A stretch of 64,000 nt of DNA from a virus (IMGVR_UViG_3300021512_000005:9040-73039); one strand, 5' to 3'; positions 16,566 to 27,756 are shown, numbered from the stretch's first letter. Notes: generated by a model not told the origin, from the sequence alone. Translations and numbers: made by a program.

Positions 16566-16679
16566 TTAATTAAGATTTTTAAATTTCTTTAAAAATTTTA
16601 TTTTTTTTAAATTTTGTTTAAATTTTGGACCAATATATTTTCTACCATTCGTATCATCAAATATTACTTTTACTACCAT
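16566..16679 (-). CDS. Micro-ORF (37 aa) coupled to the upstream ART-like gene
   Basis: TAATG overlap; MVVKVIFDDTNGRKYIGPKFKQNLKKIKFLKKFKNLN*. Confidence 0.4.
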   Translation of the reverse strand: MVVKVIFDDTNGRKYIGPKFKQNLKKIKFLKKFKNLN

Positions 16680-18076
16680 TATTCTAACCTCTTTCTAAAT
16701 TCTGCTGCTGTTATTTTACCTTCAGATGTATCAAGTATAATATCTTCAAGATTAAATTTCATAATTTTATTTGGAAGTAATGTTACTTCTTGTTCAGGAA
16801 ACCCAGAACCAGAAACAGCATAATGCATTACAACATTATTGAGATATTCTTTTTTTGGAATTTTATATTTAATACTTTTTACTTTAATTCCTTTTATTGT
16901 TATAAATCCTTCCATTTTTTCACTAAAAACATCAGCCACATGTTCACTTTCACTCCAACATGACATGTGTCCAATTGAATCAATATCTATTGTTTTTGCT
17001 TCTAATGGTAAATTAATAATTGCATTTATAAAACTTTCTCGTGCTGAATATTTTGTTTCACCTCTATAAATATACTCATTACCATTTTTTTCTGCATATT
17101 CTTTTGCACCAGTTATTAAAAGATCTAATGCATTTTTATTTATATCTTTTAATTCAAGTTCATTATTCATATATTTTTTTATTAATGCACCAACTTTATT
17201 CATCCCAAGTCCATATTCATTATACCACAAGTCAGTAATATTTTGTGCTCTTTCAATTAAATAACTTTCTTCACGAGGTATTTCATCTTCTATTTTTGAA
17301 AAAATTGTTTTTGGTTTATTTTCTATTAATTCATTAGGTTTTTGTACTTCTTTTTTTATACGTTCTAATAATAAATTTTTATTTGATTCTATAGTAGCAG
17401 TTGAATGACAAAATGCTTTTATAAGATTATCAGGATAAAAATTTGTTACTATTTTTATTTTTTCACCAGCATTACTTTCTTTTACAGATGGTGATTTACC
17501 AGAAAACATACAAGGATCATCAAGAGATATAAAATAATCTCCAATAAACATTTTATTATCTTTAAAATTTACTAAAATTTCTTTATTATTAATTTTAATT
17601 TGTAAATCACCATTATCTAAATCTTTTGTTTCAACATGTGAACGTTTTAATTCATTTTTAATTGATTTTTTCACATATTCTTCATATTTTTCTTTAGAAA
17701 TATAAGTTAATGGTAAAAAATTTTTTTCAATATATTTATATGCATTTATTTCTTCTTCTGTTTTTAAAATTTTTCCACTTTGTATTTTTTTTATAAAATC
17801 TAAAAGACCTTGTTCTATATTAAGACCTTCTTTTGTTACAAATTTTGAAAAATTTTTTGATTCTGTTGTTGGAATATTTGGAAATGCTGCATTAGCAAAT
17901 ATAAAAATATCATTTTTTGAAATTTTCATAATTTTTGATTTATTAACAAAAAGTTCATCATCATGACCAACTTCTGCTTCACGCCAATATGCCTTATGTT
18001 TTGGTGAAGCAGGTACATAAATTTTTTTACGACTTTTTGCTTTTGCAAGATTTAATAATGATATTTCTATTTTCAT
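16679..18076 (-). CDS. Leader-family protein with C-terminal ADP-ribosyltransferase-like domain
   Basis: Leader MKIEISLLNLAK; R-S-E-type motifs YIYRGE, MSCWS, EQEV. Confidence 0.6.
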   Translation of the reverse strand: MKIEISLLNLAKAKSRKKIYVPASPKHKAYWREAEVGHDDELFVNKSKIMKISKNDIFIFANAAFPNIPTTESKNFSKFVTKEGLNIEQGLLDFIKKIQSGKILKTEEEINAYKYIEKNFLPLTYISKEKYEEYVKKSIKNELKRSHVETKDLDNGDLQIKINNKEILVNFKDNKMFIGDYFISLDDPCMFSGKSPSVKESNAGEKIKIVTNFYPDNLIKAFCHSTATIESNKNLLLERIKKEVQKPNELIENKPKTIFSKIEDEIPREESYLIERAQNITDLWYNEYGLGMNKVGALIKKYMNNELELKDINKNALDLLITGAKEYAEKNGNEYIYRGETKYSARESFINAIINLPLEAKTIDIDSIGHMSCWSESEHVADVFSEKMEGFITIKGIKVKSIKYKIPKKEYLNNVVMHYAVSGSGFPEQEVTLLPNKIMKFNLEDIILDTSEGKITAAEFRKRLE

Positions 18077-18089
18077 TTTCTATCTCCAT

Positions 18090-18248
18090 TTAAATTTCAC
18101 TTGTTCTATAATAACCTCTATTAAATTTTTTAATAACTTCATCTTTATTCAGTTTTAAATCTTTAAATATTCCATTAAAATTTCCATTATTCCATCTATC
18201 AATTTCAATTGCTTTTTTAGGTGTAAGTCTATATATTATTATTGTCAT
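18090..18248 (-). CDS. Small ORF (52 aa) downstream of the kinase gene
   Basis: GGAGG RBS; MTIIIYRLTPKKAIEIDRWNNGNF...RGYYRTSEI*. Confidence 0.45.
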   Translation of the reverse strand: MTIIIYRLTPKKAIEIDRWNNGNFNGIFKDLKLNKDEVIKKFNRGYYRTSEI

Positions 18249-18269
18249 TTATATTACCTCCTATAAATT

Positions 18270-25323: not shown

Positions 25324-25398
25324 TTAATTTTTATTTTTAGATTTTTTCATCCAAAATTTATTTTCTTTATCTTCATCAATATTTGGTAATAATTTCAT
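25324..25398 (-). CDS. Micro-ORF (24 aa) coupled to ART-like gene
   Basis: ATGA overlap; MKLLPNIDEDKENKFWMKKSKNKN*. Confidence 0.45.
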   Translation of the reverse strand: MKLLPNIDEDKENKFWMKKSKNKN

Positions 25399-26681
25399 TC
25401 TACTATATCCTCACGATTTATTTTAATTTTTTTATCTTTATTTGCAACAATAAATTCATATTCTGCATTACCACCAAATTGATAATCTGTCATACGAATA
25501 TAAGGTGAAGTAAAATAACTAAATAATATATCTTTAATTGGAATTTCTTTTTTAATAATAACTCCTTCACCTTTTGCTGCAAAATCACGTGCAATTGATT
25601 TATCAGATGTCCATGATGATGTAACATAACAATCTACCATAATATTTTCATCTTTTTTTAATTCTGATTTAATAAGATCTGCATAATCTCCTTGGACTCC
25701 ACGATATAATGTTATAGTATCTTTATTCTTAAATCGTTTTTTAAGATCTTTTTGTGTTCTATTTACTTCTGAATAAAATTGATTAACTGCATTTTGATTT
25801 AATTTATTTATTAAATTTTCATGATCACCAATTAATTGAATTTTATTATATAATTTATTATTTTCTATTTCTTTTATTCTTTCATTAATAGCTTCAACAT
25901 AAGCATGATCATCTTTATATTTTTCAGCATATTTTTTTAATTCATTATATTCTCTTTCTAATTTATTATCTAAATTTGGAATTTTAGTTTCATTATTATT
26001 TAAATATGCTTCTGTTAATTCATTTAAATAAAATGATGTTCCTATTGTACTTTTATATGATTCTAAAGCACTACTTATAATATTATTATCTTCTGTTAAT
26101 TTAGCATTTTTAAAATTTCCACCAGTTTTAATTTTTTCTAATTGATTATAATGATTATTTATAGTTTCTATAATTTCTGGTATTTCTTTAATATCTTTAC
26201 CAAACCATTCTTTTTTACCAATTACAACTTTTCCTGTAAAATATGTAACATTACCTCCAGATTTTGGAAAATAACCTGTCTCACGACTAATATAAACTTC
26301 ATCATTACCAATTTTTAATTTTACTGAATTAGATTTTAATGTTTCTAAATCAACATCATATTTATCTGTTATATCTAATTTTTGATTAAATTCATTTAAT
26401 CCTTGAATTATAAAAGTATTCTTATTATTTTTTTCTTTTTCTTTTTGACCAAGTCTCTGCTTACGTTGAAATGTTTTTCCTTGACGATGAACTGTTACAT
26501 AACCTTCATGAGTTCCTCGTTCATCTTTTAATAAATTTAAATTAATTTCTATTTTATTCACCATAATAGCCTTATGTTGTGCTAATGCTTCTTTTTTAGT
26601 TGGAAAACATGATATTATTTTACCTTTATCTTTTCCATGACAATGAATTGTACAAAATTTATTATTAATTTTCTTTATCAT
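25395..26681 (-). CDS. Leader-family ADP-ribosyltransferase-like protein
   Basis: ERGTHEG leader after a 43-aa Cys/His module; TLYRGV, TSSWT, AEYEF. Confidence 0.68.
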   Translation of the reverse strand: MIKKINNKFCTIHCHGKDKGKIISCFPTKKEALAQHKAIMVNKIEINLNLLKDERGTHEGYVTVHRQGKTFQRKQRLGQKEKEKNNKNTFIIQGLNEFNQKLDITDKYDVDLETLKSNSVKLKIGNDEVYISRETGYFPKSGGNVTYFTGKVVIGKKEWFGKDIKEIPEIIETINNHYNQLEKIKTGGNFKNAKLTEDNNIISSALESYKSTIGTSFYLNELTEAYLNNNETKIPNLDNKLEREYNELKKYAEKYKDDHAYVEAINERIKEIENNKLYNKIQLIGDHENLINKLNQNAVNQFYSEVNRTQKDLKKRFKNKDTITLYRGVQGDYADLIKSELKKDENIMVDCYVTSSWTSDKSIARDFAAKGEGVIIKKEIPIKDILFSYFTSPYIRMTDYQFGGNAEYEFIVANKDKKIKINREDIVE

Positions 26682-26760
26682 TCTCCAACCTCATATTTTT
26701 TCGTAACCAATTACGATTAATTGCTTCATCATCAATTTTAATAGTTTTTATTTTTTTCAT
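26665..26760 (-). CDS. Micro-ORF (31 aa) coupled to ART-like gene
   Basis: ATGA overlap; MKKIKTIKIDDEAINRNWLRKNMRLENDKEN*. Confidence 0.45.
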   Translation of the reverse strand: MKKIKTIKIDDEAINRNWLRKNMRLENDKEN

Positions 26761-27686
26761 AATTCATCACCAAATGATACATCATCTTTATAAATAGTAA
26801 TAGGATTTGAAGATATTGTAAATTCTCTTTCACTGAATATATCAGATAAACCCCAAAATAACCAAATATCTTTTTTTGGAAATGAGTGTCTAATAATTAT
26901 TCCATCCTTCATTGCAAAGGCTTTTGCAATATTAAAACGTTCTGACCATGATGATAAAGATGCTAATTCTACTTTACATTTTCCATCTTTATTTAATGTT
27001 TCTTTAATTTTTTCAGCTCTATTTTCTTTAATTCCACGATATAATTTTATATTATCTGTATTTGGAAACATTTTATCTATAACTTGATCAATAAATTTTT
27101 TCATTGCAATAACTTTTTGTAAATAATTTTTATCTAATGCTTTTTCTTTAAGAGTATCTTTTAATTTTTCAATATCAATATCATTTGGTAAATGTGTATC
27201 TAAATTTTTTCCAGTTAATTCATTTATTGCTATTTGTAATTTAACAGAATCTATAAACTGTGGATTATCAAAAAATTTTTCAACACTTTCTTTAACTGAA
27301 TTATCTTTTATATTTCCAGCATAAAATGTAATATCATCAAACATATTTTTAAATTCTATTGCACCTTTTGTAAGTTCAACAGGCACATGAATTTGATGAT
27401 CTTTAAATCCAATATCTTTCCATGTTTGAAATAAATTTGTCCAATCCCAATCAATTCCTATTTCTTTAAATTTATTTGAATATTTATTTAATTCATCACT
27501 GAAATCTAAAGAATCATAATATTTTTGATATTCTTTTTTAACAAATAATTTTTCTTTCCTATTTTCTTCTTTTCTACCAAGCCGCTGTTTACGTTGAAAT
27601 ATTTTACCTTGACGATGAACTGTTACATATCCTTCATGTATTCCACGTTCATCTTTTAATAAATTTAATAAATTAATTTCAATCAT
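26757..27686 (-). CDS. Leader-family ADP-ribosyltransferase-like protein
   Basis: Likely start ATG 27686 (MIEINLLNLLK-DERGIHEG); KLYRGI, LSSWS, SEREF. Confidence 0.68.
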   Translation of the reverse strand: MIEINLLNLLKDERGIHEGYVTVHRQGKIFQRKQRLGRKEENRKEKLFVKKEYQKYYDSLDFSDELNKYSNKFKEIGIDWDWTNLFQTWKDIGFKDHQIHVPVELTKGAIEFKNMFDDITFYAGNIKDNSVKESVEKFFDNPQFIDSVKLQIAINELTGKNLDTHLPNDIDIEKLKDTLKEKALDKNYLQKVIAMKKFIDQVIDKMFPNTDNIKLYRGIKENRAEKIKETLNKDGKCKVELASLSSWSERFNIAKAFAMKDGIIIRHSFPKKDIWLFWGLSDIFSEREFTISSNPITIYKDDVSFGDEL

Positions 27687-27756
27687 CTTTATCTTTATTT
27701 TCTTTATTAATAAATATAAAATCTTCAAATTGCCCAACAAATTTTTTTTGATCCAT
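27679..27756 (-). CDS. Micro-ORF (25 aa) coupled to ART gene
   Basis: TAATG overlap; MDQKKFVGQFEDFIFINKENKDKDD*; its end overlaps the next ATG. Confidence 0.45.
   Translation of the reverse strand: MDQKKFVGQFEDFIFINKENKDKDD

Follow-up and report, generated by a model that had tools for sequence, protein, structure and literature searches.

Small open reading frames behind four ADP-ribosyltransferase-like genes in a phage head module may encode cognate accessory peptides related to enzyme tails

Small open reading frames (ORFs) downstream of toxin genes are a published pattern for MuF phage toxins, in which they act as immunity genes (Jamet et al. 2017, PMC5576092; Alexei et al. 2024, PMC11699363). 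An ORF of <150 aa lies behind 89.4% of 191 MuF toxin genes (PMC5576092), and the MuF-ADP-ribosyltransferase (ART) Bxa is blocked by the adjacent Bsi (PMC11699363). Polyvalent proteins have been proposed to be inactive precursors that are made active by processing (Iyer et al. 2017, PMC5512222), and ARTs packaged in the head are considered common among phages (PMC9503650). Here, we examined a 64,000-nt stretch of DNA, referred to as the window, which covers positions 9040–73039 of the 73-kb viral contig IMGVR_UViG_3300021512_000005 and is the head module of an uncultivated phage of roughly 23% GC. The window holds four genes for ARTs or ART-like proteins (ART1 to ART4), each of which carries a leader of ~40 aa, found throughout an array of cargo genes, and has a micro-ORF encoding 24–37 aa behind it (mic1 to mic4, numbered by their ART). 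MuF phage toxins with small downstream immunity genes would be the closest known kind. An original prediction, made from the DNA alone, had proposed that the micro-ORFs encode cognate immunity peptides that silence the ARTs in the producing cell. We favor a related reading, at a probability of roughly 45%, in which the micro-ORFs encode ART-cognate accessory peptides that are detached tails of the enzymes and plausibly act in trans as a latch.

The evidence that carries this reading is a segment of ~20 residues found behind DRAT-like ARTs, with the pattern hydrophobic-D-x-[DE], a few residues, and then [ND]-x(0-2)-W-[LIVM]-[KR]. A search with ART2 returned 38 relatives at E <= 1e-3 among 1.84 billion representatives, and in three of the 24 that were inspected the motif is fused in frame behind the ART domain. 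The first of these, P0034, is a 1959-aa polyvalent protein with MuF, GNAT, and several ART domains; by eye, and with domains assigned by Pfam, the motif lies behind both of its DRAT-like domains and behind none of the others. In P0004 (7059 aa), it follows at least 10 ART repeats, and in the singleton P0012, it forms the C-terminus, at the same distance (by eye) from the E-x-E motif as in ART2 plus mic2. A profile built from ten P0004 tails and the P0012 tail ranked mic2 first and mic3 second of the 1830 stop-to-stop segments in the window, with E-values (0.025 and 2.1) that are marginal in absolute terms, the strength lying in the ranks; mic1 and mic4 were not in the top 20. When the same profile was run over 24 related loci, the top 8 of 3221 segments were all tail or mic elements. 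The motif shared by mic2 and mic3, which the original prediction had pointed out, stands on its own at a shuffle p of 0.01–0.02, and the independent profile ranks are much stronger support for it.

Pairwise comparisons agreed with the profile and revealed a third arrangement of the segment. By BLASTP, mic3 aligned with the P0034 tail behind the ART3-like domain (11/15 identical, E 2e-6) and with its second tail (E 0.014). In L031, L032, and L033, the best ART3-like matches among viral contigs, the motif stands at the very start of the next large gene, and BLASTP matched mic2 to this position in L032 (E 0.013) and mic3 to L031 (E 0.006 and 0.011). The motif-headed gene in L032/L033 encodes an XkdF-type prohead protease (PF14550, 8.9e-15) plus a C3-like ART. 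The protein P0035, of which L032/L033 is the genomic copy, ends exactly where ART3 ends, and the next gene alone carries the motif, at its start. Three weaker ART3-like matches (L034–L036) had no motif, and neither did the DRAT-like protein of Bacillus phage SP-15, which has a terminator behind it. Phages rich in GC and phages rich in AT both keep the motif at the amino-acid level, and at least six different sequences can follow the segment. Because the motif occurs fused, at the next gene's start, or free behind such ARTs, we take the segment to be specific to the upstream DRAT-like ART family, and, judged by these sequence comparisons, mic2 and mic3 are free-standing versions of the fused tail.

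We then followed the two peptides across related loci, using a metagenome scan with the leader alignment that returned 18 loci (L008, L010, and L016 are one contig, and L013 breaks off within ART2). The mic2 ORF lies behind ART2 in all six other contigs that hold the ART2 3′ end (L008, L014, L015, L017, L018, and L019). Two of these, L017 and L018, form a second clade in which ART2 is 70–72% identical with pS of 0.54–0.61, near saturation, and a MuF gene instead of ART3 lies downstream, and still the first 20 residues of mic2 are nearly invariant across the clades. In this second clade, the ATGA overlap is replaced by a stop, one codon, and an ATG with a new GAGGA Shine-Dalgarno (SD) sequence, so a separate mic2 start has been kept by different means. 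Nucleotide identity between the window and L017 is 0.6–0.9 across ART2 and 0.78–0.84 across the mic2 core, and it drops to ~0.4 on both sides, directly behind the core and ahead of the ART2 start; as identity stays at coding level through the core and then collapses, the homologous block comprises the leader, ART2, and the mic2 core. Likewise, mic3 lies behind ART3 in 2/2 contigs (L014 and L019), where the next gene is an intact leader-JAB gene and not the p311 gene (for a 311-aa protein) that follows in the window. A swap was also seen, with ART3, mic3, and p311 in the window versus an ART4-type gene, a 34-aa ORF, and p311 in L015. Peptide type follows the catalytic domain of the upstream ART, not the downstream gene. 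We consider mic2 and mic3 very probably real genes, and it is likely that the peptides are ART-cognate.

The 34-aa ORF of L015 has a counterpart of 38 aa behind the ART4-type gene of L037. The two small ORFs are 52% identical over their full length and their ARTs 46%; at saturated synonymous sites, pN is 0.26 for the small ORF vs 0.37 for the ART. Given this full-length identity, the pN below that of the ART, and the different downstream genes, they are a conserved small protein and a second post-ART peptide family. The N-terminal 15 aa of mic4 resemble the N-extension of the gene behind the ART4-like gene in L025 (0/2000 shuffles reach the score), a comparison in which mic4 ranks first of 1830 window segments at a phmmer E of 0.25. 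An automatic three-sequence profile also placed mic4 first (E 0.067); a hand-aligned two-sequence profile gave E 0.004, a value biased by gap placement, and automatic profiles were preferred. We lean toward mic4 being a real gene. The original prediction had called for a check for conserved micro-ORFs behind homologous ARTs, and such conservation is what we found for mic2 and mic3, to a moderate degree for mic4, and not for mic1, which occurs elsewhere only in DNA that is 100% identical to the window over 203 nt. Whether mic1 is a real gene is somewhat doubtful. A 52-aa ORF lies behind the ART in L025.

Two further ideas about mic1 were rejected. As a scrap of an ART1-like gene, it matched the interior of the L027 ART only weakly (E 0.095) and ART1 itself not at all (E 0.33). 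The motif K(F/Y)(V/I)G, proposed in the original prediction as common to mic1 and mic4, is present as letters, but the local alignment has p = 0.75 and no relative keeps the pattern.

All four micro-ORFs were recovered in an ORF listing on the minus strand, precisely where they had been predicted and with the predicted stop-start overlaps (Table 1). Each has an SD-like motif 5–10 nt upstream (4/4), within the last ART codons. For background, an SD-like match of at least 4 bases precedes 13.4% of 1274 non-start ATGs and 39 of 66 real gene starts, and 10.7% of 839 off-frame ATGs inside genes stay open for at least 24 codons, as all four micro-ORFs do. Same-strand gaps of 60 nt or longer numbered 22, and an ATG ORF of at least 24 codons coupled to the preceding stop followed 4/4 ARTs vs 5/18 other genes (Fisher one-sided p ~0.017); because five non-ART gaps also carry one, this phage has coupled small ORFs behind genes other than ARTs as well. 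In the gaps, each frame other than that of the micro-ORF is closed by 2–8 stops, except at mic1, where the ART2 frame is open too. The gaps contained no terminator-like site and no Rfam match, and promoter-like sites were at shuffle level. Taken together, the micro-ORFs look like real genes coupled in translation to their ARTs, and ribosomes finishing the ART probably go on to initiate them. Among eight sequencing runs located, none was listed as RNA data containing this phage. As predicted, the cargo leader is absent from all four. They had also been called unannotated, which is correct for mic3, whereas the exact mic1, mic2, and mic4 peptides are already called as proteins in a public collection (in clusters of 1, 4, and 1). 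PHROGs gave nothing significant for any of the four, and the Atlas neighbors of mic2 are generic short clusters.

Each micro-ORF lies in the −1 frame of its ART, and the gene after it is back in the ART frame (4/4; 16537-28433, minus strand). The start-to-start distances that return the frame are 747, 1005, 1362, and 1539 nt, an arrangement with a chance of ~1 in 81 that is unexplained. Fusion of ART and peptide by frameshift or read-through was rejected, as no slippery heptamer was seen before the stops and the frame relation varies, being −1 in the window and in frame behind a stop in L017, L018, and L032.

In the mechanism that we propose, each ART cassette would end with a separately translated micro-gene reached by termination-reinitiation. 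The peptide would most likely bind its own ART domain as the fused tail does in cis and would act as a latch, restraining the enzyme in the producing cell until the leader carries the enzyme into the capsid; the peptide, having no leader, would stay out. Forms that are fused or attached to a neighboring protein would fit a latch that is removed or left behind at packaging or processing, and they would fit a linker relic too. That the peptides are inhibitory is a tentative suggestion that we hold with more doubt than conviction. More specifically, the post-ART segment could be a portable autoinhibitory latch whose invariant Trp plugs the NAD pocket, with cis (fused tail), tethered (start of the next protein), and trans (24–37-aa microprotein) forms having interchanged repeatedly; this version is rather unlikely.

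Several observations weigh against a cognate accessory peptide. Immunity factors do not typically occur joined to the enzyme or to the protein after it, as this segment can be, and a linker or relic would account for that equally well; the mic2/mic3 motif is not a small protein family of its own. DRAT-like proteins without the tail are numerous, although these were seen without genomic context. The tail-profile E-values are marginal, as noted, and BLASTP of P0012 against mic2 gave no alignment, which leaves the profile and visual inspection to support this link. Between the two clades, the second half of mic2 is not conserved, and the selection signal of mic2 (pN/pS of 0.21/0.46, compared with 0.15/0.61 for ART2) comes from ~15 synonymous sites. 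A profile of the two free ORFs of L015 and L037 alone did not find mic4, which is why we place mic4 only tentatively in the second family, tied to the ART4-type domain. For mic1, no homologue was found in PHROGs, the viral-contig scan, or the public protein collection, and L027, the sole other ART1-like gene with downstream context, has no micro-ORF. The immunity-peptide idea of the original prediction thus survives in part: the small genes are coupled to and co-inherited with the ART, as the MuF precedent would have it, but the mic2/mic3 motif is elsewhere fused to the ART or to the next gene, which is unusual for an immunity protein.

The micro-ORFs could instead be leftover inter-domain segments of a broken-up polyvalent protein, kept for ribosome coupling and with the peptide itself inert. 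The motif is internal in the polyvalent proteins P0034 and P0004 and N-terminal in the next gene of L031, L032, and L033, as such an origin would suggest; mic1, mic2, and mic3 each reach almost exactly from one end of the gap to the other, and genes across the array regularly overlap stop to start. The C-terminal half of mic2 diverges freely, mic1 is unconserved, and mic3 also resembles a leader variant in L025 (p = 0.0005), while the tail profile matches no leader. An inert segment is harder to reconcile with a motif that survives between mic2 and mic3 when ART2 and ART3 are only 33% identical over 154 aa, with the full-length similarity of the L015 and L037 small ORFs at saturated synonymous sites, with a peptide type that tracks the upstream ART and not the gap or the downstream gene, or with conservation of the motif at the amino-acid level in phages of different base composition. 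We regard an inert relic as unlikely, if still deserving of weight.

A parallel in the same array also bears on this choice. The leaderless 52-aa ORF p52 stands behind two PI3/4-kinase-like cargo genes, and its homologues (90% identical in L008, 60% in L015, 57% in L011, and 50% in L027) lie directly behind the kinase-like gene, so that kinase-like cargo always has a conserved p52 after it. Its conservation (50–90%) at least equals that of the kinase-like enzyme (33–57%), and kinase-like cargo and p52 may be a second kind of enzyme/small-partner pair. Because p52 is conserved behind the kinase-like cargo, and because of the published toxin/immunity pattern of MuF phages, we see a partner role as the more likely reading of the post-ART peptides.

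A partner need not silence its enzyme, and the segment could complete, stabilize, or tether the ART; it might, for instance, dock the ART onto the following cargo protein or the prohead protease so that the two are packaged together. In P0012, P0034, and P0004, the segment is covalently attached in presumably functional effectors, and the segment heading the XkdF-type protease protein of L032/L033 would tether the upstream ART to a capsid-internal protein. However, in P0034 the motif lies ~40 residues beyond the end of the DRAT Pfam model, which puts the segment outside the canonical ART fold, P0035 stops at the end of the ART with the motif only on the next gene (L032/L033), and the cargo proteins of the window already have their own leader. 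A positive or structural role of this kind is improbable. Finally, chance open frames in AT-rich spacers, with no gene at all, are very hard to credit: the ORFs are very short and Lys/Asn-rich and mic1 is without comparative support, but coupling, length, and SD would very rarely coincide by chance, and conservation, tail homology, and the closed other frames refute chance for mic2 and mic3 and leave it possible for mic1.

Returning to the enzymes to which the accessory peptides would be cognate, ART1 is clearly a C3/VIP2-type ART by its Pfam matches (Table 1), and its homologues P0039 (61%) and P0041 (33%) end at the same residues as ART1. ART2 and ART3 are paralogues, and an alignment of 20 sequences of their family shows no variation at the R-S-E positions R217, S246, and E288 and conservation of 90% or more at Y216, S245, and E286. 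ART4 had no Pfam match, no PDB sequence match, and no word-index homologue of its domain, but the R / S / E-x-E pattern (Y-R-G, an S-rich stretch, and P-E-x-E-V-T) is kept in the alignment with L015 and L025. Its nearest Atlas clusters are DRAT (0.93 and 0.92), which we treat as a lead only, and ART4 is a probable ART. Searches of cultured phages with ART2, ART3, and 18 kb of window DNA gave no match, and none was found in a search of genome contigs for relatives. A single close relative contig was all that came out of viral-contig scans with ART2, the leader, the ART1 alignment, and a mic2 motif translated back into DNA. In P0003, a relative, MuF, leader, and an ART2-like domain are fused; in the window, Pfam found MuF only in 20278-21732, and none of the four ARTs is fused to it.

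Some further features of the ART genes were observed. The 41-aa Cys/His-rich extension of ART3 (26559-26681, minus strand) also fronts different cargo domains in three more distant phages (L015 1956-, L027 6230-, and L037 2218-). From the ART1 stop to the ART2 ATG (27687-27755, minus strand), the frame shared by ART1 and ART2 has no further stop, and a single TAA parts the two ARTs in frame. The ART2 start was set at the ATG that opens the leader, and an alternative TTG start lies 18 codons upstream of it. In the close relative L008 (13498-14928), the 3′ end of ART2 is shifted at an A-run, and ART3 breaks off after 52 residues, its place taken by two much more GC-rich ORFs, one with tandem repeats.

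Table 1. Positions of the ART genes, micro-ORFs, and neighboring head-module genes in the window
Feature	Position (nt)	Strand	Basis and remarks
ART1: leader + C3/VIP2-like ADP-ribosyltransferase	27756..28433	-	PF03496 1.1e-12, PF01129 1.9e-8
mic1, 25 aa	27679..27756	-	Starts on ART1 stop (TAATG); stop overlaps ART2 start by 8 nt; SD-like GAGGA upstream
ART2: leader + DRAT-like R-S-ExE ADP-ribosyltransferase	26757..27686	-	PF07357 DRAT 2.8e-6, 27.1 bits vs cut-off 25
mic2, 31 aa	26665..26760	-	ATGA overlap with ART2; 17-nt overlap with ART3 start
ART3: 41-aa Cys/His-rich N-extension + leader + DRAT-like ART, ART2 paralogue	25395..26681	-	PF07357 4e-5, 23.4 bits, just below cut-off 25
mic3, 24 aa	25324..25398	-	ATGA overlap with ART3; stop inside SD of next gene
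ART4: variant leader + probable ART domain	16679..18076	-	Leader vs ART2-family leader, hhalign probability 97.7%
mic4, 37 aa	16566..16679	-	TAATG overlap with ART4; end 28 nt before prohead protease gene
Portal protein	28420..30051	-	543-aa ORF; 97% identical to L008 portal, 55-57% to L017, L018, L027; cargo array starts directly downstream
p311 (311 aa), leader-bearing	24384-25319	-	ORF and leader alignment
HExxH protein, leader-bearing	23467-24387	-	ORF and leader alignment
Leaderless 88-aa ORF	23204-23470	-	ORF listing
MuF head-morphogenesis domain + leader segment + HExxH metallopeptidase-like domain	20278..21732	-	PF04233 1.4e-16; leader in alignment
PI3/PI4-kinase-like cargo gene, leader-bearing	19124-20278	-	PF00454 2.3e-4, below curated cut-off
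PI3/PI4-kinase-like cargo gene, leader-bearing	18270-19127	-	PF00454 5.3e-5, below curated cut-off
p52, leaderless 52-aa ORF behind PI3/4-kinase-like cargo genes	18090..18248	-	Homologues directly behind kinase-like gene
Prohead serine protease	15596..16537	-	PF04586 4.6e-5

The surrounding genes are those of a head module, with window positions 1-46000 reading on the minus strand in the order portal, cargo array, prohead protease, a scaffold-like ORF, and a 347-aa ORF. The scaffold-like label, the 347-aa ORF as major capsid protein, and a 451-aa ORF as terminase are our own assumptions, made by judgement. Recoding of TGA was rejected, as the portal gene and the 451-aa and 347-aa ORFs are all intact under table 11. 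In order, the array holds ART1, ART2, ART3, the 311-aa protein, the HExxH protein, a leader-only fragment with a JAB-like ORF, the MuF protein, the two PI3/4-kinase-like proteins, and ART4; in the region 23204..25319, all three junctions are 4-nt overlaps. The leader has 22 invariant columns in an alignment of 7 copies. In the MuF gene, it is placed after the MuF domain, with the HExxH domain behind it, and because the leader of the cargo enzymes is this same post-MuF segment, leader-bearing enzymes are probably loaded into the capsid. The two tandem PI3/PI4-kinase-like proteins, whose Pfam matches are weak, are probably capsid cargo as well.

Other observations concern the array and its edges. 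Two further leader-bearing genes (182 aa, and 138 aa with a variant leader) lie at 3568-4752 (minus strand), ~12 kb from the head array and outside the portal-protease block. In L019 (2453-3091), the leader and a JAB/RadC-like domain form a single 212-aa gene; in the window (22040-22666, minus strand), the same cargo is split into a 44-aa leader-only ORF and a 154-aa ORF, 27 nt apart, and given the intact L019 gene the window copy is probably frameshifted or decaying. The portal gene of the window is uninterrupted, unlike that of the close relatives L008 (10001-12472), L011, L012, and L013, where the portal frame stops near residue 490 and a separate ORF supplies the final ~75 residues. Between the two lies a gene for 248–257 aa with a leader-like segment and an H-x-H-P-type motif.

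We compared the ART cassettes with three described systems, in each case with the parts of the cited sources that were available. In T4, Alt and the internal head proteins (PMC5512222; PMC9503650) offer a late-made ART that is packaged in the head and injected with the DNA, and a short targeting segment on the cargo. In the available text of these two sources, no inhibitor or partner peptide is mentioned for Alt, and the leader in the window differs in being ~40 aa long and shared with the MuF gene. Polyvalent proteins (PMC5512222) share ART, kinase-like, metallopeptidase, JAB/RadC-like, and MuF domains with the array, and the relatives P0034 and P0004 are themselves polyvalent, with the post-ART motif internal. 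In contrast, the window domains are separate coupled ORFs with their own starts, and the ARTs are R-S-ExE and DRAT-like, where the common polyvalent ART is of the HYD type (PMC5512222). The post-ART motif was not met in the available text of that paper. The array of ARTs, kinase-like, metallopeptidase-like, and JAB-like proteins with a shared leader documents interconversion of polyvalent proteins and single-effector gene arrays.

MuF polymorphic toxins (PMC5576092; PMC11699363) are closest. Here too, effectors lie just downstream of the portal gene in the head module, ART domains are among the toxins, and a small ORF follows immediately, in the window behind 4/4 ARTs. Unlike MuF toxins, the window ARTs are not fused to MuF and carry only the ~40-aa post-MuF segment, several effectors stand in tandem, and the partners have 24–37 aa vs at least 92 residues for Bsi (PMC11699363); two of them correspond by homology to a segment that other phages fuse to the enzyme. 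An ADP-ribosylhydrolase partner was not seen among the window ORFs scanned with Pfam. How packaged ARTs are tolerated by the producing cell and by late gene expression of the phage itself is known only for MuF toxins with immunity proteins of ordinary size. ORFs of 24–37 codons in phage structural modules can be real conserved genes, and a ~20-residue segment specific to one ART family, occurring fused, attached to a neighbor, or free, would be a compact and directly testable regulatory element. If the segment is indeed a portable autoinhibitory latch, no smaller protein inhibitors of ART toxins than its trans forms would be known, and the cognate enzyme/peptide pairs would be easily synthesized.

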